Shown here: one piece after another, positions 2,345-17,534 of the stretch | Layout: the number at the start of each line of letters is the position of its first letter | Numbering within the stretch: position 1 is the first letter of the stretch | Origin: Pseudobdellovibrionaceae bacterium | GTDB taxonomy: Bacteria; Bdellovibrionota; Bdellovibrionia; Bdellovibrionales; Bdellovibrionaceae | NCBI GenBank assembly: GCA_039810425.1 | Contig: JBDHWW010000053.1 | Location: 1-19,128, forward strand | Length of the DNA: 19,128 bases | Direction of reading: 5' to 3' | Notes under the pieces: model-generated | Seen by the model: only the letters and a program-made list of their open reading frames with translations | Databases searched by the model: none | Told to the model about the DNA's origin: nothing | Made by a program: the position numbers and the translations under genes

Positions 2345-4003
2345 ATGTTTGAATTAGAAGAGAATATCAGTATCGGAGCCAACATTAAGGTTGTTGGTGT
2401 CGGTGGCGGCGGTAGCAACGCAGTCACAACCATGATCGAATCAAATATGGGCGGTGTAGAGTTCATCGTAGCAAATACTGATATCCAAGCGTTGAACGCG
2501 AATAAAGCGCCTTCTAAAATTCAATTGGGTCTTGATTTAACAAAAGGTCTTGGTGCAGGAGCCAACCCCGATATCGGTCGTCGTGCGGCGATTGAATCTT
2601 ACAATGAAATCGTCGAAAAACTTGAAGGCGCTGACATGGTTTTCGTCACTGCCGGCATGGGCGGCGGAACTGGTACCGGGGGAGCTCCCATCGTAGCGAA
2701 AATAGCCCGTGAATTGGGCGCGCTTACTATTGGCGTAGTCACTAAGCCTTTCTTCTTCGAAGGTAAAAAACGTTCTAAGCACGCTGACGGAGGTTTGGCG
2801 GAGCTGAAAGAGAACGTGGATACCCTCATAGTGATCCCGAATCAGAAACTTCTTTCTATAGCGACGGAAAAGACGCCTTTGCTCGAGACCTTCAAAAAAG
2901 CGGATGAAGTGCTTTTGCAAGCGGTCAAAGGGATCTCTGATTTGATTAACATCCGTGGTTTGATCAACTTGGACTTCGCGGACATTCGTACCGTCATGGC
3001 GTCTAAAGGGATCGCGATCATGGGGACTGGCACGGCAAAAGGCCAAAACCGCGCTGTCGAGGCGGCGACCGCGGCGATTTCTTCCCCACTTCTCGAGAAC
3101 ATCCGTATCGATGGAGCGACGGGTATTATCGTGAACATCACGGGTGGTTCTGACTTGAGCCTCCTCGAGGTGAACGAAGCAACGATGTTGATTACAGAAG
3201 CTGCGCATGAAGATGCGGAAATCATCTTCGGTGCGGTTATCGATGATAATATGAACGAAGAAGTTCGCGTGACGGTTATCGCAACTGGTTTTGCACAAGA
3301 AGACCGTCAAATGGCTTCTGATACAATCAATCAAATGCAACAGTTCTTGAACGGTACGGGCATCCAGTTTCCTGGGATGAGCGCATCTTCCGGCATGCCT
3401 GGGAACATGAACATGCTGCCGCCAATTCCTGCAATTCCGAACATGCTGCCGCAAATGCCACAGATGCCGGCAATGCCTCAGTATCATCAACCGCAACAAG
3501 TTCCTGTGATGCCAGCGGAGTTGCCGCCGATTCAAACAGTCCAAAGTTCCGTGATGAACTACACTCAAACTGTTGAGCAAACTCAACAGCAAGTTCCGCA
3601 ACAGTTTTACCACGCTCCGGTTCAACAGGCGGCTTCTGTAGTTCCACAAATGCCAATGCAGCAAGAGCAGGTGGCGACGCCAATCGCTCCGATTGCTCAA
3701 CAGCAGGTGGTTCCACAGCAAGCGGTGCTACAAACACCACAAGCTCCAAATCCGGCGGAAGCGGCAATGTCTCCTCGTGATATGTTGATGGCTAAGGCGC
3801 GTGCTTTCAAAGAAAGCCAGGACTTGAAAGCGCGTCATACACAACCAGAACAATTGTCTATGAATGTAGACCATGAGCAGCAGTCTCTCGAAGAGGCCCG
3901 TAAAATGGCTCGTGAGGTGCTGAGCTCTCCATTTTCTGGCCAAAACCTCGAGGTTCCTGCTTTCATCCGCAAGAAACAAGGTTTTGACTTGAATAAAGAA
4001 TAA
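2345..4003 (+). CDS. ftsZ: Cell division protein FtsZ with a long low-complexity C-terminal linker
   Basis: 552 aa with [13 protein letters not shown], the tubulin signature [10 protein letters not shown]7 loop INLDFAD and C-terminal core peptide LEVPAFIRK. Strong SD AGGAGGA. Confidence 0.99.
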
Positions 4004-6692: not shown

Positions 6693-7688
6693 TTAGGTGA
6701 GCCGAGCGCGCCGCTGGCTCAGTAAGGCGGCGGCTTCTTTTGCAAAATAAGTCAGAATCACATCCGCACCGGCACGGCGGATCGCCAGGAGACTTTCCAT
6801 CATCGCTTTTTCGCCGTCCAGCCAGCCATTTGCGGCGGCCGCTTTGATCATCGCATATTCGCCACTTACGTTGTAAGCCGCGACAGGCACGGTGAAGTTC
6901 TGCTTCAGTGACTGAATAATATCCAGGTATGCCAAAGCCGGTTTGACCATGATTATGTCAGCGCCTTCGTTCACATCAAGACCTGCTTCCAGCAAGGCCT
7001 CACGCGAATTGCGTGGATCCATTTGATAAGTTTTCTTATCGCCGAATTTTGGCGCTGAATCGAGAGCATCACGGAAGGGGCCATAGAAGCTCGAAGCATA
7101 TTTCGCGGAGTAAGCAAGAATGCCGGTGTTCTCAAAACCTTCGGCGTCAAGGGCACGCCGGATTTCCCCGACGCGCCCATCCATCATGTCAGACGGCGCG
7201 ACCATGTCGGCTCCCGCGCGAGCTTGAGCCAACGCCATTTTCACTAGCACTTCGATCGTCTCGTCATTGAGGACTTGACCATCGCGAACGATACCGTCAT
7301 GACCGTCACTGGAGTAAGGATCCAACGCGACGTCGGTGATCACGCAAGCCTCCGGAAACTTGTCTTTGATTTTTTTCACCGTTGTCGGCAGAAGGCCCTG
7401 CGAATTGAAAGACTCCTCCGCAGTTGAGTTTTTCAAAGAATCCCTGATGGCGGGAAAGAGCGCGAAGGAATGGACTCCCAAAGTCTGGCATTCGGCTATT
7501 TCTTTAAGTAAGTTGTCGGCACTTAGGCGGAACTGACCCGGCATCGACTTGATCGCGATCTTTTGATCCTGGCCCTCGCACAAAAAGACAGGGTAAATCA
7601 GATTATCTGCGCTGAAGGTGGTTTCAGCGATCATGTTACGGATGGCAGGAGTCCGGCGATTGCGGCGAGGGCGATTGATCATATCCAT
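6693..7688 (-). CDS. hemB: Porphobilinogen synthase (ALA dehydratase), Asp-rich non-zinc type
   Basis: 331 aa with RPRRNR, DVALDPYSSDGHDG, APSDMMDGRV, YSAKYASSFYGPFRDA, MVKPA and AYNVSGEY. Confidence 0.98.
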   Translation of the reverse strand: MDMINRPRRNRRTPAIRNMIAETTFSADNLIYPVFLCEGQDQKIAIKSMPGQFRLSADNLLKEIAECQTLGVHSFALFPAIRDSLKNSTAEESFNSQGLLPTTVKKIKDKFPEACVITDVALDPYSSDGHDGIVRDGQVLNDETIEVLVKMALAQARAGADMVAPSDMMDGRVGEIRRALDAEGFENTGILAYSAKYASSFYGPFRDALDSAPKFGDKKTYQMDPRNSREALLEAGLDVNEGADIIMVKPALAYLDIIQSLKQNFTVPVAAYNVSGEYAMIKAAAANGWLDGEKAMMESLLAIRRAGADVILTYFAKEAAALLSQRRARLT

Positions 7689-7779: not shown

Positions 7780-7802
7780 ATGACAATTCAATGACAATTC
7801 AA
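7780..7802 (+). promoter_or_regulatory. Tandem 11-bp direct repeat containing TGACA-N6-TGACA (OmpR/PhoB-type, HemR-box-like operator)
   Basis: ATGACAATTCA at 7780-7790 and 7791-7801. TGACA half-sites at 7781-7785 and 7792-7796. Lies in the hemB/hemA divergent region, about 30 nt upstream of hemA. Confidence 0.8.
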
Positions 7803-7828
7803 AGCCGAAAATACAGTACATAAGAGGA

Positions 7829-8698
7829 ATGGACGACGTCTCTATTCTCCACCGCCGCGGCCACGGCAAGGCTCTCCCGGAACTGACCGAAGGTTTGGTT
7901 TGGAAGACTTGCTTGCGCCAGATTGCTTTCGTACCCGCGGGTGCGAAAGTGGTTGCTTATGACGAGGGCGATGAGATCTATTCTGGAAAAGATGCCTTCG
8001 CCTTTTTGCTCGAGATCATCTGTGGCTTGCAATCACCCATCGTTGGTGAAACCGAAATCTTCGGTCAGTTTAAAAACTTCGTCGGCACCGCGCTTGAAAA
8101 GAAAACATTACTGACTTTACAGCTTCGAGGTTTCTTCCAGTCGTTGATTCAAACGGCGAAGAGTCTTCGCGCTGAATATCTGGTGGGCTTGGGCTCGCAA
8201 GGTTACGGCAGCCTCGTTCGCAAGCTTGCGAAAAATGATAAAGCAGTGACTTTGCTTGGATCAGGCCAGTTGGTGGAAGAAGTTCTGCCTTGGGTTGCGA
8301 AGGAAAAATCGCTGCAAGTGGTTTGTCGCAATCCTGAGAAAGCACAAAGATTTGTTGAAAAATATCCCGCATTGAAAACCGAGTCGTTTGCCAGTGCACA
8401 AGAAGTTTACCCTTGTGTGGTGGTGGCGGCGCCGCTGACGGATGAAGCGCTTCTTCAATGGTTGAAGTCTTATAAGGTTCAAAAGATTCTTGATCTACGC
8501 GGTGAGCTGGAAAAGCCCGAACTTTTCAAAGATTACCAGTTCATTGGCCTTAAAGACGTTTTCGAGAACATTGAGGAAAATAAGAAAGATCTCAGCCGGA
8601 GAGTTGTTGCTCTCAAGGAATTGGTGCAGAGACGCGCGCAAGAATATTTCGATCGCACTTTGCATCGCCCTTACGGCTGGGAGGATTTGTGCATCTAA
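7829..8698 (+). CDS. hemA: Glutamyl-tRNA reductase, short form
   Basis: 289 aa with catalytic Cys motif KTCLRQ (canonical STCNR), CGLQSPIVGETEIFGQFK (canonical GLDS.v.GE.qI.GQvK) and Rossmann LLGSGQL. First gene of the hem operon. Confidence 0.88.
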   Translation: MDDVSILHRRGHGKALPELTEGLVWKTCLRQIAFVPAGAKVVAYDEGDEIYSGKDAFAFLLEIICGLQSPIVGETEIFGQFKNFVGTALEKKTLLTLQLRGFFQSLIQTAKSLRAEYLVGLGSQGYGSLVRKLAKNDKAVTLLGSGQLVEEVLPWVAKEKSLQVVCRNPEKAQRFVEKYPALKTESFASAQEVYPCVVVAAPLTDEALLQWLKSYKVQKILDLRGELEKPELFKDYQFIGLKDVFENIEENKKDLSRRVVALKELVQRRAQEYFDRTLHRPYGWEDLCI

Positions 8699-10191
8699 AA
8701 AGCCGCATCCGGCTGTCGGCTCGAAAAAGCGACCTCGCACGGTTGCAAGCTTACCAAGTCGGCGAAGCTCTTCAAAAGAAGATCCCTGGAATCGAAATTC
8801 AGTATAACTTCCGCGAATCCCTCGGAGACAAGAATCTCAGCGACCCTCTCTGGCGCATGCCCGAGAAGGGTGTCTTCACCGAGGACTTCGTGCAGGATCT
8901 GCTAGATGGCAAGACCGATTTGGTAGTTCACTCGTGGAAGGATCTGCCGACGGCTCCGCGGATTGGCACGAAGATCGCTGCAACTTTGCCACGTGCCGAT
9001 CAGCGTGATTTGTTTTTGTTTAAAAAATCTTCTGAAACGCGTGTTTGCTCTGTTGGTGAACTGAATGTGTTGAGCTCTTCGCCTCGCCGTGCTTACAATC
9101 TTGAAGGATTTTTAAAAGATCATCTTCCCTTCAGCTTGAACAAGGTTCAATTCCATAACGTCCGTGGCAATATTCAAACGCGTGTGCGGAAGATGCTTGA
9201 AGATGCGTCCGTGGACGGCTTGATCGTCGCGAAAGCGGCGCTGGATCGCTTGCTGACGGTGAAGGCTGCCGAGTTTAATGAAACCCGGCAGTTCTTGCGG
9301 GATACTTTGCAAGGGCTCCAATGGATGGTTTTGCCATTATCGGTGAACCCGAATGCCGCTGCACAAGGGGCGCTGGCGGTTGAAATCAAAGAAGGCCGCG
9401 AAGACCTTGAACAGGTTCTCACGCAAATTGATTGCCGTGAAACATTCACCGCTGCCCAGAAAGAGCGCGATGTGCTCGCGAGCTTTGGCGGCGGCTGTCA
9501 TCAAAAGATCGGTGTCGCGGTCTTGAAACGTCCTTATGGGGATGTGTTTTTCTTAAAGGGTCTCACGGACGCGGGCCAAGTTTTGAGTGAGAAGTCATTG
9601 CTCCGGGCATATCCGCCAAAGAAGTTTGCGGCGGACAAACTCGCGAGTTCAAAAGAGCTCAAGGTCGAACGAACGCATTCATTGAAGTTTGAAATTCCGG
9701 CCGATGTTCAAGGCTTGTGGGTGGCAAAGGCCGAAGCTTTTCCTGAAACATTGTTGTTTAGCGGCCTTGTGTGGACGGCGGGCCTTCAAACCTGGAAGAA
9801 AATCGCCAAACTTGGTGTTTGGGTGAATGGCTCCAATGAAGGTCTGGGTGAAGACGAAATCCCGCAAATCGAAACTTTATTTGGTTCAGTGGTTCGCTGG
9901 GCTAAATTAACTCATAAAGAGGCTCCGCAAGGGCCTGATAAGGATGTCGTTGCGACATATCAAGTCGACGTTCATACCGAGAGCTGGAGTATAGGTGCCC
10001 GTGAGGTGTTCTATTGGAATAGCGGGTCGCAGTTTTTGGCCGCCCTAACAAAAGAGCCTGGGCTGCGGCACAAAAGACATGCCTGCGGGCCGGGAAATAC
10101 GTATAAAATACTACGCGACCAGTTGGGTCCCCAGGCCCCTATTGAAATTTATTTGGATGAAGAGGATTGGAGAAAATCATGCAGTCTTTAG
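8689..10191 (+). CDS. hemC: Hydroxymethylbilane synthase with a C-terminal HemD-like extension (putative HemC-HemD bifunctional enzyme)
   Basis: 500 aa, GTG start. N-terminal ~300 aa carry [46 protein letters not shown] and cofactor Cys in GGGCHQ. About 190 extra C-terminal residues follow. Confidence 0.93.
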
Positions 10192-11462
10192 AGCTATTTG
10201 AACGAGCAAAGAAAGTCGCCCCCGGGGGGGTGCATTCTCCGGTGCGTTCTTTCAAAGGTTTGGACCATCATCCCATTTTCTTCAAAAAAGCTCAGGGTGC
10301 TTACCTGACAAGTGTTGAAGATAAACAGTACATCGATTTCTGCCAAAGCTTCGGGCCACTTATTTTGGGTCACCGTGATACCGATGTCGCTGAAGAAGTT
10401 CATCGCATGATAGATACGGCTTGGACGTTCGGTGCCTGCGAAATCTATTCTTTGGAACTTGCTGAGTGGATGACTCAAAGTTTGCCTTGGATGGAAAAGC
10501 TTCGTTTTGTATCTTCAGGCACCGAAGCGGTGATGAGCGCGTTGCGTGTGGCGCGTGCGGCGACGAATCGTACTAAGATTTTGAAATTTGAAGGTTGTTA
10601 TCACGGTCACGCGGATCAGTTGCTTGTGAAGGTGGGCAGCGGTCTTGCCGGCACCGCCGCTTCTAGCAGTGCGGGAATCTCAGCTGAAATCGCTTCAACG
10701 ACTTTGGTGACTCCGCTGGATGACATGGCAAGGCTGCGTGAAGTGTTCACGGCTCAAGGGAAAGATATCGCGGCGGTGATCATCGAGCCATTGCCTGCGA
10801 ATTACGGCCTCTTGGTTCAGCGCCAAGAGTTCTTGAGTGAAATTAAAAATCTTTGTAGAGCCAATGGCAGCTTGCTGATCTTTGACGAAGTGATCTCGGG
10901 TTTCAGAACCGCATTTGGCGGGATGGTGGAGCTCTCAGGCATTCGGCCGGATCTTGTGACTTACGGAAAAGTGATTGGTGGCGGTTTCCCTGTCGGTTGC
11001 TACGGAGGCCGTCAGGATTTGATGGACCTCGTTGCGCCAAATGGCAACGTATACCAAGCCGGTACTTTGAGCGCGAACCCGGTGGGAATGCGCGCGGGTC
11101 TTAAAACTTTGCAAAAAATGAAGTCTCTGAATGGCTGGAAAGTTCTGAATCAAAGAACGACGGTCTTCTGCCAGAAATTGCAAAAGGGCTTTGATGAAAT
11201 CAAAGCGCCGGTGCAAATTTCTTCGCACAGTTCATTGTTCTGGATCCACGGTCGCGTGAGCGACCCGATCCGTACGATTGAACAGATCCCACAAGGCCAA
11301 GGCGAGAACTTCAAAAAGTTGTTTTTAAGATGTTTGGATAAAGGTGTTTATCTTGCGCCCAATGCCTACGAAGTCGGTTTCTTATCGATGGCCCATACGG
11401 ATGTCATTCTGGATGAAGCGGCGAGCAAAATCTTGCAAGCTTCCCGTGAGGTTTTCGGATAG
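10179..11462 (+). CDS. hemL: Glutamate-1-semialdehyde 2,1-aminomutase
   Basis: Start reassigned to ATG 10179 (GGAG at 10169-10172). Motifs [33 protein letters not shown] lysine in [13 protein letters not shown], and [10 protein letters not shown]. Confidence 0.97.
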
Positions 11463-12310
11463 TGTGGAAAGTTAAAACCCTTCTTGCCACTGTTTGGTTC
11501 TTTTTTGTCGTCTCCCTCGTCGGCTGGTGGTGGATTTATTTCATGAACTCGATTGTAGCGGCGAGTGGCCAAGAAATGAACCGCACCCACCGCATGTTCA
11601 TGTGGGAGGGCAGCATTCTTCTGGCGGCGCTCGTTATCGGGGGGCTTGCTTTGATTTTCCTTTCCTATCGTGATGAAAAACGGCATGAACAGCTCAGAAC
11701 TTTCTTTGCGACTTTCAGTCACGATATCAAAACCTCTATCACGCGCTTGCGCCTGCAGGCGGAAGTGCTGGAGGAGGACGGTGCCTCTCAGCAAAGCCCA
11801 GTGTTACAGCGCCTGATTAGAGATATCTCTCGTTTGGACTTGCAGCTGGAGAATTCATTGCTGCTTTCTACCAGTGACGCGCAAAAGGTACTGATCGAAA
11901 GAATGTCTTTATCAAAGCTTATTGAGTCATTGCGAATTCAGTGGAGTGAACTTGATTTTCGCTTGCAAAAAGAAGCGGAGGTCGTGGCGGATAGACACGC
12001 GATGGTCAGCGTGCTTCGTAATTTGATTCACAATGCGGTATTGCATGGACAAGCGACATCCATTGAGATCTCTGTGAGAGCTGTCGGTTCGGAGCAAATA
12101 GAAATCGCAATTCAAGACAATGGCAAAGGTTATGGCGGTAATGCGGGTTTGTTGGGGGCGGAAGTGCTTCCCTCAAAGAGCGAGCGTGGTAGTGGCATTG
12201 GTTTGTACCTCTGCCGCCGTTTAGTTAAAAAAATGGGCGGCGATCTTCGTTTTGAACATGCGACACCTGGCCTTCGCGCTATTGTTCAGATCTCGGGGAG
12301 ACCTCTATGA
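11462..12310 (+). CDS. Two-component sensor histidine kinase (Leptospira HemK-like by context)
   Basis: 282 aa, GTG start overlapping the hemL TAG. Two TM helices with a very short loop. H-box FSHDIKT, N-box NLIHNAVLH, G1 DNGKG and G2 GSGIGL. Confidence 0.93.
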   Translation: MWKVKTLLATVWFFFVVSLVGWWWIYFMNSIVAASGQEMNRTHRMFMWEGSILLAALVIGGLALIFLSYRDEKRHEQLRTFFATFSHDIKTSITRLRLQAEVLEEDGASQQSPVLQRLIRDISRLDLQLENSLLLSTSDAQKVLIERMSLSKLIESLRIQWSELDFRLQKEAEVVADRHAMVSVLRNLIHNAVLHGQATSIEISVRAVGSEQIEIAIQDNGKGYGGNAGLLGAEVLPSKSERGSGIGLYLCRRLVKKMGGDLRFEHATPGLRAIVQISGRPL

Positions 12311-12978
12311 GAAAAATTCTTCTCTTAGAAGATGATGTCTCGTTGGGAGAGACGCTGAAAGAGCGCCTTTCGAAAGAGTACAATGTGTTCTGGGTACAGA
12401 ACGTGCGCGCAGCAAAAGACCTTCTCGGTAAAGAGTCCAGTCTGGATCTCGTGATCCTAGACTTGGGTTTGCCTGATGGCACGGGGTTTGACGTCGCTGA
12501 ATTTATCCGCACACAAGATCAGCACCCGTTATTTATTTTCCTGACGGCGCAAGCGGATGCCGAGGCACGTTTGAAGGGGTTTGAACTCGGGGCGGAAGAG
12601 TTTATTCCAAAGCCTTTTCATCTGAAGGAACTGCTCATTCGGGTAAAACATGTTTTGGAGCTCCACGCCCCTCAGGCGGAAATTTCTATTGAGGGCACCG
12701 TGATTAATTTTACGACATTGTCGGTGAAAAGGCGCGATGGACCGATCGAGTATCCGCCTTTGACGGATCTTAAGATTTTACAGTTATTGATTGAACGCGC
12801 ACCTCGCGTGGTCAGTCGCGATGAGATGCTGAACGAAGTCTGGGGCCAGGATAAAAATCCGAGTCATCGGACGATTGATAACACCATCGTCCGCCTTCGC
12901 CAGTTGTTCGGCGACAAAGGCGAAGAATACATCCGCTCCGTTCGCGGTATCGGATACCAATGGTTTAAAGAGAATTAA
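12307..12978 (+). CDS. OmpR/PhoB-family response regulator (Leptospira HemR-like by context)
   Basis: 223 aa, ATGA overlap with the kinase. Receiver domain LLLEDD...ILDLGLPDGTG...FLTA...KPF and winged helix VSRDEMLNEVWG...RTIDNTIVRLR...IRSVRGIGY. Confidence 0.95.
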   Translation: MRKILLLEDDVSLGETLKERLSKEYNVFWVQNVRAAKDLLGKESSLDLVILDLGLPDGTGFDVAEFIRTQDQHPLFIFLTAQADAEARLKGFELGAEEFIPKPFHLKELLIRVKHVLELHAPQAEISIEGTVINFTTLSVKRRDGPIEYPPLTDLKILQLLIERAPRVVSRDEMLNEVWGQDKNPSHRTIDNTIVRLRQLFGDKGEEYIRSVRGIGYQWFKEN

Positions 12979-12990
12979 GGAAGTCGTACT

Positions 12991-14013
12991 ATGTCGAATA
13001 TTCTTTTTCAAAATGCCCTTCTTCGTAAACCACAAAATACGCCGCCGATTTGGTTCATGCGACAGGCGGGCCGGTATCATAAGCACTACCAAAACCTGCG
13101 TAAGGACCATAGCTTTGACGATCTTTGTAAAAAGCCAGAGCTTGCGGCACAAGTCGCCCTGGGCCCGGTGGAAGATTTCGATTTCGACGTCTCGATTCTT
13201 TTTAGCGATATCTTGTATCCATTGCAGGCGCTTGGTATGGGCTTGGAGTACACGGACCATGGTCCTCGCCTGGGCTTCCAGCTGACACCTGGCAATATTC
13301 AAAATCTGAAGTCCGGTGAAGATGTTGTGTCATTTATGAACTTCCAGAAAGCAGCTCTCCAGCAGACCCGCGCGGTATTGCCGAAGAGTAAATCTTTGAT
13401 CGGCTTTATCGGGGGCCCTTGGACTTTGTTTGTCTACGCAGTTGAGGGATCCCATGCCGGTAGCTTGACACAATCTAAGAAGTTAATTTCGCTCTTCCCG
13501 GAGTTTTTAAAGAAAATGTTACCATTACTGAAAGAAAACATCCGCTTGCAGTTATCTGGTGGTGCTGAAGTAGTGATGATCTTCGATACGGCGGCGGGTG
13601 AGTTGTCTCCGCTGAATTTCCAGAAATGGATTCAGCCCGTGTTGAAAGAGCTCAATGCTTTGGCGCCGGGAAAAATCGGCTACTACTCTAAGAGCACGCA
13701 AGCGGTGTACTTCAACCAAGAATTTTTGAACTTGCCGTGGGCGGGAGTGGGTTTTGACCACCGCTGGAATCTGACGAAGTGCTTCGGCTTGGTTAAGCAC
13801 GGTTTTGTGCAAGGCAATTTCGATCAAAGCTTGCTGTTTTTAGAAGAAGCTCAGCTTCAAGAGGAGCTGGGAATTTATTTGGAAAATATGAAGTCGCTGT
13901 CTGTTGAGGAACGAGCAGGATGGGTGAGTGGGCTGGGCCACGGCGTCTTGCCAAAAACTCCGGAAGGCAATGTTCGCCTTTTTGTCGAGACGGTGCGAAA
14001 GGTGTTTGCATGA
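12991..14013 (+). CDS. hemE: Uroporphyrinogen decarboxylase
   Basis: 340 aa with PIWFMRQAGRY, ILFSDIL, LIGFIGGPWTL, IFDT, QGNFD and LGHGVLP. Confidence 0.98.
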   Translation: MSNILFQNALLRKPQNTPPIWFMRQAGRYHKHYQNLRKDHSFDDLCKKPELAAQVALGPVEDFDFDVSILFSDILYPLQALGMGLEYTDHGPRLGFQLTPGNIQNLKSGEDVVSFMNFQKAALQQTRAVLPKSKSLIGFIGGPWTLFVYAVEGSHAGSLTQSKKLISLFPEFLKKMLPLLKENIRLQLSGGAEVVMIFDTAAGELSPLNFQKWIQPVLKELNALAPGKIGYYSKSTQAVYFNQEFLNLPWAGVGFDHRWNLTKCFGLVKHGFVQGNFDQSLLFLEEAQLQEELGIYLENMKSLSVEERAGWVSGLGHGVLPKTPEGNVRLFVETVRKVFA

Positions 14014-15374
14014 GTTCAAGCTCTGATATTTCAAAGCTCATCGCGAAATACGATGTGCAGGTACCTCGTTATACGAGTTATCCTACGGTGCCTTATTGGG
14101 AAGAGGCCCCCCGCCACGATCAGTGGGTGGATCATCTTCGTCAAACATTGCAGGATGCGGACAGCCGCTGGTCGATGTACATGCATCTTCCGTTCTGTGA
14201 AAGCCTTTGCACTTTCTGTGGTTGCAACAACAGCATCACGAAAGATCACAAGAAAGAAGCGCCTTATATTGATTCCCTGGTGAAGGAATGGAATGCCTAC
14301 AAAATACAAGTGCCGGAGCTGATGCAAAGTCGGCTGACGCACCTGCATTTGGGCGGCGGGACTCCGACATTTTTCTCACCTGAAAGCTTGAAGACTTTGA
14401 TTTCCGCGATTTGGAACGACGTCAAGAAGGACCCTCACCATTTCGAAGCGTCCATTGAAGTCGACCCCCGCAGAACATCGGTAGAGCACTTGAAAGTTTT
14501 AAAGGAACTTGGCTTTGACCGTGTCAGCATGGGGGTCCAGGATTTTAATCCTGAAGTTCAGCGCTTGGTCAATCGTATTCAGCCGTACGCGATCACTGCG
14601 AAACTTACTGAAGAAGCTCGAGCAATGGGTTTTCGTTCCGTGAACTATGACCTCATTTATGGTTTGGCAAAGCAAACAGTGGAGTCTTTCGCTGAGACCG
14701 CAAAGCTGACTGTGGCTTTACGCCCGGACCGTATTGCGCTTTATAGCTTTGCTTTGGTTCCATGGATTAAGCCGGCGCAGCGTTTGTTCAAGGATGAAGA
14801 TCTTCCAGCCGGTGCGGAGAAGCGTCGGCTTTATGAAATTGCGCGCGAGATTCTGATGAACGCGGGTTACGTTGAAATCGGTATGGATCACTTCGCGTTG
14901 CCGTCGGAAGCTCTTAGCATGGCGGCGCAAGCGAACAAGCTTCATAGAAACTTCATGGGGTATACAGATCAGAAGAGCGATGTTCTTCTCGGTTTGGGGG
15001 TCAGCGCCATTTCTGAGACTCCGTGGAGTTTCCATCAAAATGAAAAGTTACTCAATATTTACCAGGAGCGTGTGGCTAAGGGGGAAATCCCAACCCATCG
15101 CGGTCACGTTCACACTGATGAAGATCGTGAACGTCGTCAGCAGATCCTGACCTTGATGACCCAGTTGCAAGTTGGCCTGACCAGTCCTTCGCAAGCGGCG
15201 GCGGCCAAGAGCTTCTTGGGGGAGATGATGAAAGACGGTCTGGTTGAAGTGACTGAGAAAGAAATGAGCGTCACCGAGAAAGGGCGTCCTTTCTTGCGCA
15301 ATGCTTGCGTTTTTTTTGATGAGCGTCTTCGTAACAAGCAACCTCAGACCCAAGTTTTCTCGAAATCTATATGA
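14010..15374 (+). CDS. hemN: Oxygen-independent coproporphyrinogen III dehydrogenase (radical SAM)
   Basis: Start reassigned to ATG 14010 (ATGA overlap with hemE), giving 454 aa. Motifs PRYTSYP, HLPFCESLCTFCGC (CxxxCxxC), GGGTPT, SMGVQDF, IGMDHF and RNFMGY. Confidence 0.97.
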   Translation: MSSSSDISKLIAKYDVQVPRYTSYPTVPYWEEAPRHDQWVDHLRQTLQDADSRWSMYMHLPFCESLCTFCGCNNSITKDHKKEAPYIDSLVKEWNAYKIQVPELMQSRLTHLHLGGGTPTFFSPESLKTLISAIWNDVKKDPHHFEASIEVDPRRTSVEHLKVLKELGFDRVSMGVQDFNPEVQRLVNRIQPYAITAKLTEEARAMGFRSVNYDLIYGLAKQTVESFAETAKLTVALRPDRIALYSFALVPWIKPAQRLFKDEDLPAGAEKRRLYEIAREILMNAGYVEIGMDHFALPSEALSMAAQANKLHRNFMGYTDQKSDVLLGLGVSAISETPWSFHQNEKLLNIYQERVAKGEIPTHRGHVHTDEDRERRQQILTLMTQLQVGLTSPSQAAAAKSFLGEMMKDGLVEVTEKEMSVTEKGRPFLRNACVFFDERLRNKQPQTQVFSKSI

Positions 15375-16576
15375 AGAAAAAAGTGGTTATTGTCGGCGGA
15401 GGTTTTTCAGGTCTGGTGACGGCTTACTACTTAAGCCGCCTTGGGATTGAAGTCGATCTTCATGAAGCAAGCTTCCGTTTGGGAGGGTTGCTTGGCAGTG
15501 AAAGGCTTGAATCGGGTCTGGTTGAAACCGCCGCCAATGGGTTTATTTTGAATGACGTCTTGGTTGAGTTGCTGGAGGACATCGGGCTTGAATGCATTCG
15601 GCCACTTAAAGGCGCGCGTAAAAGATTTATCTTCCGTGGCGGATTTAAGCGGTGGCCATTGAATCTCATCGAGACCCTCGGTCTGATTTTGAAGATTCTA
15701 CCGCGCATTTTCTTTCGTCGGTCCTCCTTTGAACCGAAAGTGGATGAAACTGTTTGGGCGTGGGGCCTTCGTTGCCTGACCAGAGCCGCCACGAGGTATT
15801 TTTTAAGCCCGGCCCTCCAAGGAATCTATGCGGGTGATACCCATAGAATGAGTGCGGAGCTTATTCTTGGCCCGATGTTTGGTGGCAAGAAGCAAAAATA
15901 TCGCGGAACGGTGTCTTTCAAAAGAGGTATGGGCGAGTTCATCGCGGCGATCGAGAAGAAGCTCGTTCATCAGGGCGTGAAGATCCACTTGAATTCGTTC
16001 TATCAAATCGAAAACCTGGAAACCCCACACATCGTTTGCGTGTCGGCGGCCGCAGCGTCAAAAGCACTAGGGAACGTCGCGCCTGAAGTGGGTGCGCGGC
16101 TTTCAAAAATTGAGGTGTTGCCAGTCTTGAGTACGACGGTCTTTTTTGAAAATCCGCGCTTTAAGATCGAAGGCTTCGGCGTCTTATTCCCGGACGATCA
16201 GCGGTATCGCGTGCTAGGGATTTTGTCTCCGACTCGTATTTTTGAAAATCGCGGTCCGGGTTACAGCGAAACCTGGATTTTCGGTGGCGCTCATTCACCG
16301 GAAGTTCTTGAGAAGTCCAATGAGCATATTTTGGAACTCATTCAAAGTGAACGCACCCGTATTTTCGGACTGACTGATAAAGTGCGCGAATATCGTATGC
16401 ATCCTTGGCCGAAGGCATTGCCACATTATACTTTGGAACATAAAAAACTCCTTGGTGAGCTGCAACTGCCGAAGAACTTGTATTTGAATGGCAACTATAT
16501 GGGCGCCATCGGTCTCAGCAGAATTCTTATCCGCAGCAAGGAGCTTGCCCAGAAAGTTAGCGATGGCAGTAACTAA
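15371..16576 (+). CDS. hemY: FAD-dependent protoporphyrinogen oxidase (HemY/PgoX type, often annotated hemG)
   Basis: 401 aa with IVGGGFSGL, EASFRLGG, ETAANGF, GIYAGD, GFGVL, ALPHY and GNYMGAIGL. Lies between hemN and hemH. Confidence 0.9.
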   Translation: MKKKVVIVGGGFSGLVTAYYLSRLGIEVDLHEASFRLGGLLGSERLESGLVETAANGFILNDVLVELLEDIGLECIRPLKGARKRFIFRGGFKRWPLNLIETLGLILKILPRIFFRRSSFEPKVDETVWAWGLRCLTRAATRYFLSPALQGIYAGDTHRMSAELILGPMFGGKKQKYRGTVSFKRGMGEFIAAIEKKLVHQGVKIHLNSFYQIENLETPHIVCVSAAAASKALGNVAPEVGARLSKIEVLPVLSTTVFFENPRFKIEGFGVLFPDDQRYRVLGILSPTRIFENRGPGYSETWIFGGAHSPEVLEKSNEHILELIQSERTRIFGLTDKVREYRMHPWPKALPHYTLEHKKLLGELQLPKNLYLNGNYMGAIGLSRILIRSKELAQKVSDGSN

Positions 16577-17534
16577 GGGTGTTTTGCTGATCAATATCGG
16601 CACTCCGGATTCTCCAGCGGCCAAAGATGTTGCCGTTTACCTCAGAGAATTTCTCATGGATGAGGAAATCCTACCGATTCCCGTATCCTTTCGCTGGATT
16701 CTTGTTCACATTGGTATTGTCTGGCGACGCGCACCTGTTTCAGCCGGAAAATATCAATCGATTTGGACCTCACAAGGTTCTCCGTTGATGATTCACTCAC
16801 TGGCAGCGAAAAAGAATCTGCAAGCGGAGCTCGGTGATGACTACGCGGTCGAAATCGGTATGCGCTACGGAAATCCGTCGGTTGAGAGTGCCTTGCTCAG
16901 GTTCGAAAGTCTTGGTGTGAAAGAGGTATTTATTTTACCTTTGTATCCGCAGTATTGTCGGGCCACGACGGAGTCTTCATTCAAGCAAGTGGAAGAGGTG
17001 AGGGAAAGGCGGGGGCTCACATGCCATTTTCATAGGTTGCAATCGTTCTGGTCGAACCATCAATTCATTCGTGCCTTGGCTGAAGAGGCTAAAAAAAGTC
17101 TGCAAGGCAAAAAGATCGACTACTACTTGATGACCTATCACGGGCTGCCGGAAAGCCAGAACGGCAAAATGGATCCGATGGATTCGTATAAGCTCCGTTG
17201 TTATGACACCTCAAAGCTCTTGGCCGAAGCGATGGGGCTTGGTCCGCAGCAGTGGGGCGTGTCTTTTCAATCCCGTGTGGGCGTTGAGACGTGGATTAAA
17301 CCGTACACAGACGAAGAGTTGAAATCTCTGCCGGTCCGGGGAGTAAAGCATCTTGCGGTCTTGTGCCCAAGCTTTGTCGCGGACTGCTTAGAGACTGTTG
17401 AAGAGATTGGGATTGAGGGGAAAAAAACTTTTCTGCACGCGGGGGGCGAGAACTACTATCTTGTGCCCTGTTTGAATGGCCGGGCCGATTATCTGAAGAT
17501 TCTCATTCAAGAGCTAGAAAATACTGAAAAGTAA
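16563..17534 (+). CDS. hemH: Ferrochelatase
   Basis: Start reassigned to ATG 16563, giving 323 aa. Motifs GVLLINIGTP, GSPL, GMRYGNP, LPLYPQY, YHGLP, FQSRVG..WIKPYT, FVADCLETVEEI and VPCLN. Confidence 0.97.
   Translation: MAVTKGVLLINIGTPDSPAAKDVAVYLREFLMDEEILPIPVSFRWILVHIGIVWRRAPVSAGKYQSIWTSQGSPLMIHSLAAKKNLQAELGDDYAVEIGMRYGNPSVESALLRFESLGVKEVFILPLYPQYCRATTESSFKQVEEVRERRGLTCHFHRLQSFWSNHQFIRALAEEAKKSLQGKKIDYYLMTYHGLPESQNGKMDPMDSYKLRCYDTSKLLAEAMGLGPQQWGVSFQSRVGVETWIKPYTDEELKSLPVRGVKHLAVLCPSFVADCLETVEEIGIEGKKTFLHAGGENYYLVPCLNGRADYLKILIQELENTEK

Follow-up and report, generated by a model that had tools for sequence, protein, structure and literature searches.

The short direct repeat upstream of hemA in this Pseudobdellovibrionaceae genome is very probably the binding site of the HemR-type response regulator encoded in the same operon, which would activate the haem operon from this site when phosphorylated. 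This reading rests on a footprint conserved at a fixed position upstream of hemA, on the co-occurrence of the box with a kinase and regulator pair, and on the kinship of that pair with HemK/HemR of Leptospira. The window (the whole 19,128 nt stretch analyzed) contains one hem-box, TGACA-ATTCAA-TGACA (7781–7796, plus strand), a motif match that is kept ahead of hemA in relatives and in Leptospira interrogans. It is the sole match to TGACA-N6-TGACA in the window even with one mismatch allowed, which upholds the original prediction of no second copy. The box sits inside the 140 bp gap between the divergent hemB (6693–7688, minus strand) and hemA (from 7829, plus strand). As had been claimed, it is part of a perfect tandem with an 11 bp period: ATGACAATTCA occurs twice, head-to-tail, at 7780–7790 and 7791–7801, and the period-11 identity extends to 7802 (7780–7802, plus strand). 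A perfect 11-mer tandem is found in just 1 of 70 relatives' boxes. Judging from those boxes, the half-sites are what relatives conserve and the perfection of the repeat is incidental. The extended half-site reads R-TGACA-H-W, again with an 11 bp period. Dinucleotide shuffles of the 140 bp gap gave rise to the box in 2 of 20,000 cases. The whole 3.54 Mb genome holds three exact copies of TGACA-N6-TGACA (~3.8 expected) and three perfect period-11 tandems. Thus, the significance of the box comes from its position and conservation, not from rarity.

The operon downstream of the box has the order hemA-hemC-hemL-kinase-regulator-hemE-hemN-hemG/Y-hemH, all on the plus strand, with hemB divergent. The first gene (7829–8698) encodes a short, 289 aa glutamyl-tRNA reductase-like protein that scores above the cut-off for Pfam GlutR_N and under the cut-off for NCBIfam hemA. 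It is 28% identical to the product of the first gene of the L. interrogans operon, also of 289 aa. HemA in many other Bdellovibrionota is a ~410 aa form, as against the short, diverged protein of the window, and the box is found ahead of both forms. The hemC gene (8689–10191; TIGR00212) has a C-terminal extension, and its product, 39% identical to the bifunctional HemC/D of L. interrogans over 529 columns, is likely a HemC/D fusion as in Leptospira. These are followed by hemL (glutamate-1-semialdehyde aminomutase, 10167–11462), the HemK-type sensor histidine kinase (11462–12310), the HemR-type OmpR/PhoB response regulator (12307–12978), hemE (12991–14013), hemN (14010–15374), a hemG/hemY-type protoporphyrinogen oxidase (15371–16576), and the ferrochelatase gene hemH (16563–17534). 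The L. interrogans record reads hemA (289 aa)-hemC/D-hemB-hemL-kinase-regulator-hemE-hemN. The two operons share the short HemA, the HemC/D-sized fusion, and the placement of the kinase and regulator genes between hemL and hemE; they differ in that hemB lies within the operon in L. interrogans and is divergent in the window.

Both regulatory proteins are closest to those of Leptospira. The regulator is 52% identical to L. interrogans HemR (214 bits, vs. 117 for the next match in the genome), and the kinase is 31% identical to L. interrogans HemK over its full length (155 bits, vs. 59). On these scores, the window pair is orthologous to Leptospira HemR/HemK. The regulator's best match in the plasmid collection is also a Leptospira protein, and its best match among solved structures is 4q7e (E 1e−37, vs. 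1e−25 for the next), which we take to be the receiver domain of L. biflexa HemR. Against the PhoB model it scores 133 bits, where the cut-off is 296. Asp52 is common to the regulators, as is an R-T-(I/V)-D-N helix, which in the window is the recognition helix RTIDNTIVRLR. In 100 aligned kinases, conservation is ≥99% at H87, T91, W22, W23, and E49, and M45 is nearly invariant. T91 (H+4) falls at the position of the L. biflexa phosphatase residue T102, and two N-terminal hydrophobic segments were judged by eye from the alignment. A profile of the kinase retrieved 231 clusters at E ≤ 1e−30; the ten that were looked up came without useful taxonomy.

Among named organisms, members of the Bdellovibrionales are closest to the genome. 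A search for the regulator in 251 genomes drawn from the phylum Bdellovibrionota matched 91 at E ≤ 1e−40, including the genome itself. We fetched ~10.6 kb around the regulator from 80 of the 90 other matching genomes and added five hemA loci, one of which may come from the same genome as the unfetched G244. Four fetched regions had no hemA match, leaving 81 loci for the box count. In 69 of the 81, the 400 bp ahead of hemA contain the exact box on the coding strand. The phylogenetic footprinting that the original prediction had called for finds the box across the phylum. Changes in the remaining 12 are confined to the upstream half (one base in nine loci, two bases in three), and beyond the hemA sites there are no further exact boxes in the 893,334 bases of fetched loci. 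In one genome (G007), hemA is preceded by a tandem pair of exact boxes at 28 bp spacing (L069:2460 and 2488). Twenty more loci of one family (f18) were picked by hemA, and the regulator lies inside the fetched region at 17 of them. The downstream TGACA is kept in all 20; the upstream half is exact in four, has one change in two, and has two changes (CTACA or GTACA) in 14. In the f18 loci (L147–L166, L109, L114, and L117) the upstream half has mostly shifted to CTACA while the downstream half stays TGACA, and we saw no simple change in the recognition helix that matches this shift.

With the first T of the box as position 1, we compared 109 related promoters, in which the orientation of the box and its distance relative to hemA are constant. 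TA occurs at position 36 or 37 in 105 of the 109, and 79 have TAnnnT there, so that the distance from box to −10 is fixed at 19–20 bp. The corresponding sequence in the window is TACATA (7817–7822, plus strand), 20 bp after the box, in the conserved register but with the final T missing. The original prediction had placed the −10 at TACAGT (7812–7817), i.e., at position 32, where TAnnnT is found in 10 of the 109 promoters, and the conserved register instead points to 7817–7822. TACATA is thus the likely −10. At position 32, TAnnnT is kept in the three closest relatives as well, and TACAGT is a possible −10 in the window's small clade. The full overlap of box and −35 that had been proposed changes with the −10: at 17 bp spacing from the conserved −10, a −35 would occupy 7794–7799 and share just the last three bases of the box. 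The box is accordingly predicted to span about −48 to −33 and merely to clip the −35 position.

This geometry bears on whether the second TGACA could be a plain sigma70 −35 element, with no regulator involved. ATGACA does match five of the six bases of TTGACA, and the downstream half is the invariant one while the upstream half decays in family f18. The distance to the conserved −10 is 19–20 bp, however, or 15 bp to the −10 first proposed, rather than 16–18 bp, and in 69 of 70 boxes TGACA is preceded by a purine, a T never occurring there. ACA is retained one turn away even in degenerate upstream halves, and genomes without HemR lack the motif (see below). We regard a plain −35 as extremely improbable.

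An in-frame hemA start lies at box position 47–58 in 95 of the 109 promoters, the commonest distance from the −10 being 12 nt (39 cases); just 2 of these 95 starts follow an SD-like word. The window's ATG, at position 49, is also 12 nt from the −10. From the position of the start, its spacing, and the scarcity of SD-like words, we infer that the hemA ATG lies at the predicted transcription start and that the message is leaderless or nearly so. Many leaderless messages have been reported in L. interrogans, and hemA is unmentioned in the available portion of that report (PMC5243855). L. interrogans hemA itself has an exact box upstream and TATAGT at position 36, i.e., the same box-to-−10 register, with its ATG at position 54 rather than at the predicted transcription start as in the window. 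In one relative (L057), contigs from 8 of 19 RNA runs were inspected; those on the hemA side begin at 2518–2633 in six (predicted start ~2527), although contigs cannot show starts. Contigs in two runs span the gap, and five hemA-side contigs of 10.4–10.8 kb are near the length of the operon, which we do not count as evidence.

The same region could be read from the other side, with HemR mainly controlling the divergent hemB or acting on the box mainly as a repressor. A minus-strand sigma70-like sequence, TTGTCA-18-TAAATT, is aimed at hemB and has its −35 in the box, and the hemB-side RNA contigs of L057 reach beyond the box in four of eight runs, which is weak support. Across 31 divergent loci, however, the spacing between box and hemB varies (~13–111 bp) and at most two loci have the same minus-strand −10 position, so hemB in the window (6693–7688, minus strand) stands without conserved geometry relative to the box. 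The box is also retained where hemB is within the operon or elsewhere. As for repression, Leptospira HemR also represses hmuO (PMC11426443). A site ending two turns above the −10 nevertheless activates in the case of Salmonella PhoP, for which activation via alpha-CTD from a box 21–23 nt above the −10 (architecture III), as at rstA, has been described (PMC3335776). The hem-box resembles this architecture (rstA, ompX) in being a single direct-repeat box about two turns above the −10, and differs from it in sequence and regulator. Repression or control of hemB as the main role of HemR is very unlikely in our view, and activation of the hemA operon remains our reading. In those four runs the hemB-side contigs of L057 extend beyond the box and stop at the hemA start codon or just short of it (L057:2518–2530). 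Overlapping promoters for hemB and hemA would be compatible with this pattern, although contigs cannot show promoters.

The box also tracks the regulator. We sampled 20 genomes with hemA and without a regulator match at E ≤ 1e−40, and found the box upstream of hemA in eight (five exact, three with one change) and absent in 12, in which imperfect boxes were sought within 300 bp of hemA. The regulator was then searched for again with a profile built from 32 regulators. All eight genomes with the box have a HemR-type regulator at 202–225 bits, located on the same strand ~5–7 kb downstream of hemA in seven of them, whereas the 12 box-less genomes score ≤180 bits or have no match. Four regulators from box-less genomes were placed in the tree, and all group with the PhoB-like protein. 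These counts are non-independent, because the genomes are kin from few families, and amount to a handful of contrasts rather than twenty. At 11 SAR86 hemA loci we found no box and no match to the kinase or the regulator.

Detached pieces of the operon that carry their own box lend further support to the link between box and operon. In G243 and G123, which belong to one genus, insertions part hemA from hemC, and a second box precedes hemC with TAnnnT at position 37. In G048, the relocated hemB has its own exact box, with a −10 at position 36 and an ATG at 48; an exact box was found at only 1 of 30 other hemB loci examined.

The co-occurrence is pertinent to a reading in which another OmpR/PhoB regulator, e.g., PhoB, recognizes the repeat on the opposite strand, which reads TGTCA-N6-TGTCA and so matches the core of an E. 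coli pho box. The likeness is real: PhoB is of the same family and binds 11 bp direct repeats, and the E. coli pho half-site CTGTCAT, in 11 nt repeats (PMC4415409), is the reverse complement of the hem half-site. The genome has phoU, phoB-like, and kinase genes (phoU and the PhoB-like pair at C46:3585–6380) and about a dozen OmpR-type regulators, and a similar box before mlaE persists in a genome with no HemR match (G226). The PhoB box of E. coli lies ~10 bp from the −10. The hem-box, unlike it, is 20 bp from the −10 and in the opposite orientation to transcription, with one orientation and one distance to hemA in 109 promoters. The genome's PhoB-like gene is elsewhere, and the region upstream of pstS has no TGTCA or TGACA repeat at up to two mismatches; it has a different repeat, CCTAAY-N5-CCTAAY, with an 11 bp period. 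All 12 genomes without a HemR-type regulator lack the hemA box, including the four whose regulators group with PhoB. We consider it highly improbable that PhoB or another such regulator is the main reader of the hemA box, and take HemR to be its probable cognate protein. The pstS-upstream repeat (CCTAAT-N5-CCTAAC at C41:5078, minus strand) is itself a candidate pho box unlike that of E. coli.

The Leptospira literature supplies the functional side of the argument. Phospho-HemR binds a TGACA[N6]TGACA hem-box in L. biflexa (PMC11426443), so the motif that the original prediction had given for Leptospira is confirmed in print. The same study proposes that HemR activates haem synthesis and represses hmuO, and reports that 5-aminolevulinate (ALA) stimulates the phosphatase activity of HemK as the shutdown trigger (PMC11426443). 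Besides repressed hmuO, the wider Leptospira regulon includes exbB1/D1, which are activated. The genes were first described as hklep/rrlep, with their arrangement; in Leptospira mutants hemAEL was down 2–10 fold, with signs of autoregulation (PMC2266917). In the L. biflexa study, RNA-seq of a hemKR deletion showed no significant change of the hemA operon (log2FC −0.42), and the operon was induced in the deletion under iron starvation (PMC11426443). Thus, simple activation would be an incomplete account even in Leptospira.

For the window, we infer binding, activation, autoregulation, and ALA sensing by orthology with Leptospira. Two molecules of phospho-HemR would bind head-to-tail on half-sites one helical turn apart, in the region upstream of the −10 given above, and, the promoter having no usable −35, would bring in sigma70 RNA polymerase. 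The transcription start would coincide with the hemA start codon or lie a few bases from it, which would yield a leaderless message. As both hemK and hemR would be carried on this transcript, the operon would autoregulate positively. If the system works as in L. biflexa, an abundance of 5-aminolevulinate or of a later porphyrin would put HemK into phosphatase mode and lower expression of the operon.

The regulon looks narrow, close to a single promoter. In a weight-matrix scan of the genome the hemA site scores 25.8 bits, vs. 19.0 for the next, and 12 sites reach at least 15; a stricter pattern in 50 genomes gave mostly one site each. We examined 40 regions, which take in the non-hemA matches but only part of a set of six identical repeats in G105; roughly half fall inside genes, and the others have mixed neighbours. 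A genome-wide scan had been expected to turn up haem or iron genes, but no conserved second target of this kind emerged from the 40 regions, the exceptions being the G048 hemB and a di-haem peroxidase in G160; degenerate sites could escape such a scan. In this respect the system looks unlike that of Leptospira: neither hmuO, exbB/D nor any comparable gene emerged as a conserved second target, and the haem oxygenase family PF01126 has no match in the genome.

Regulator trees, sampled from Bdellovibrionota and Leptospiraceae, place the Leptospiraceae and Bdellovibrionales-type regulators in one clade (100/100), with other Bdellovibrionota HemRs outside. With one Leptospira sequence, this sequence is nested within the Bdellovibrionales-type clade; with 13 Leptospiraceae, these form a sister group (joint clade 100/100), in a tree whose bootstrap has not settled. 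A constraint holding all Bdellovibrionota together is weakly rejected in both (AU p = 0.019 and 0.046, respectively). The trees, which are of the regulator alone, suggest that HemR was exchanged between the Leptospiraceae and Bdellovibrionales lineages, in either direction. A broader picture would be that HemKR and the hem-box are an old, phylum-wide module of the Bdellovibrionota that drives a leaderless hemA from one promoter design, that it passed, along with the short-HemA operon, between Bdellovibrionales and Leptospiraceae, and that in predators that invade the periplasm, ALA or porphyrins from the prey would switch off the predator's haem synthesis, with the invariant membrane residues W22, W23, and E49 of HemK as the sensor. 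We offer this picture tentatively, and as a whole find it rather doubtful.

The finding extends a known type of regulation and is not a new kind. The linkage of the pair to haem genes in B. bacteriovorus was already noted by Louvel in 2008, with data not shown (PMC2266917), and the box outside Leptospira is the new part. HemKR is described in print as a system of Leptospira, which belongs to a different phylum, and here it occurs in predatory Bdellovibrio-type bacteria; our search of the open-access literature found no paper describing the box outside Leptospira. About a hundred diverged orthologues define the box more sharply, with R-TGACA-H-W half-sites and an invariant downstream half, set the promoter geometry precisely, and single out a few invariant residues in the membrane region of HemK. 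The question moves to B. bacteriovorus, a harmless and genetically workable predator, and to haem supply during growth inside prey.

Several other box-like sites and features deserve mention. A second exact box in the genome (C36:7177–7192, minus strand) overlaps the start of a 224 aa ORF upstream of an apparent rimP-nusA-infB; we found no counterpart of this box in a same-genus genome. A near-identical box (C3:140572–140587) lies between a TPR-protein gene and a lipoprotein-mlaE operon. It is conserved in the genome and three relatives (L201, L210, and L212), including G226, which has no hemA or HemR match, and is probably read by another regulator. In G105 (L235–L237), which has no hemA match, six identical box-matching words occur in a dispersed intergenic repeat. 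Within the window, FtsZ (2345–4003) has a long C-terminal linker of ~220 aa that is rich in Gln and Pro.
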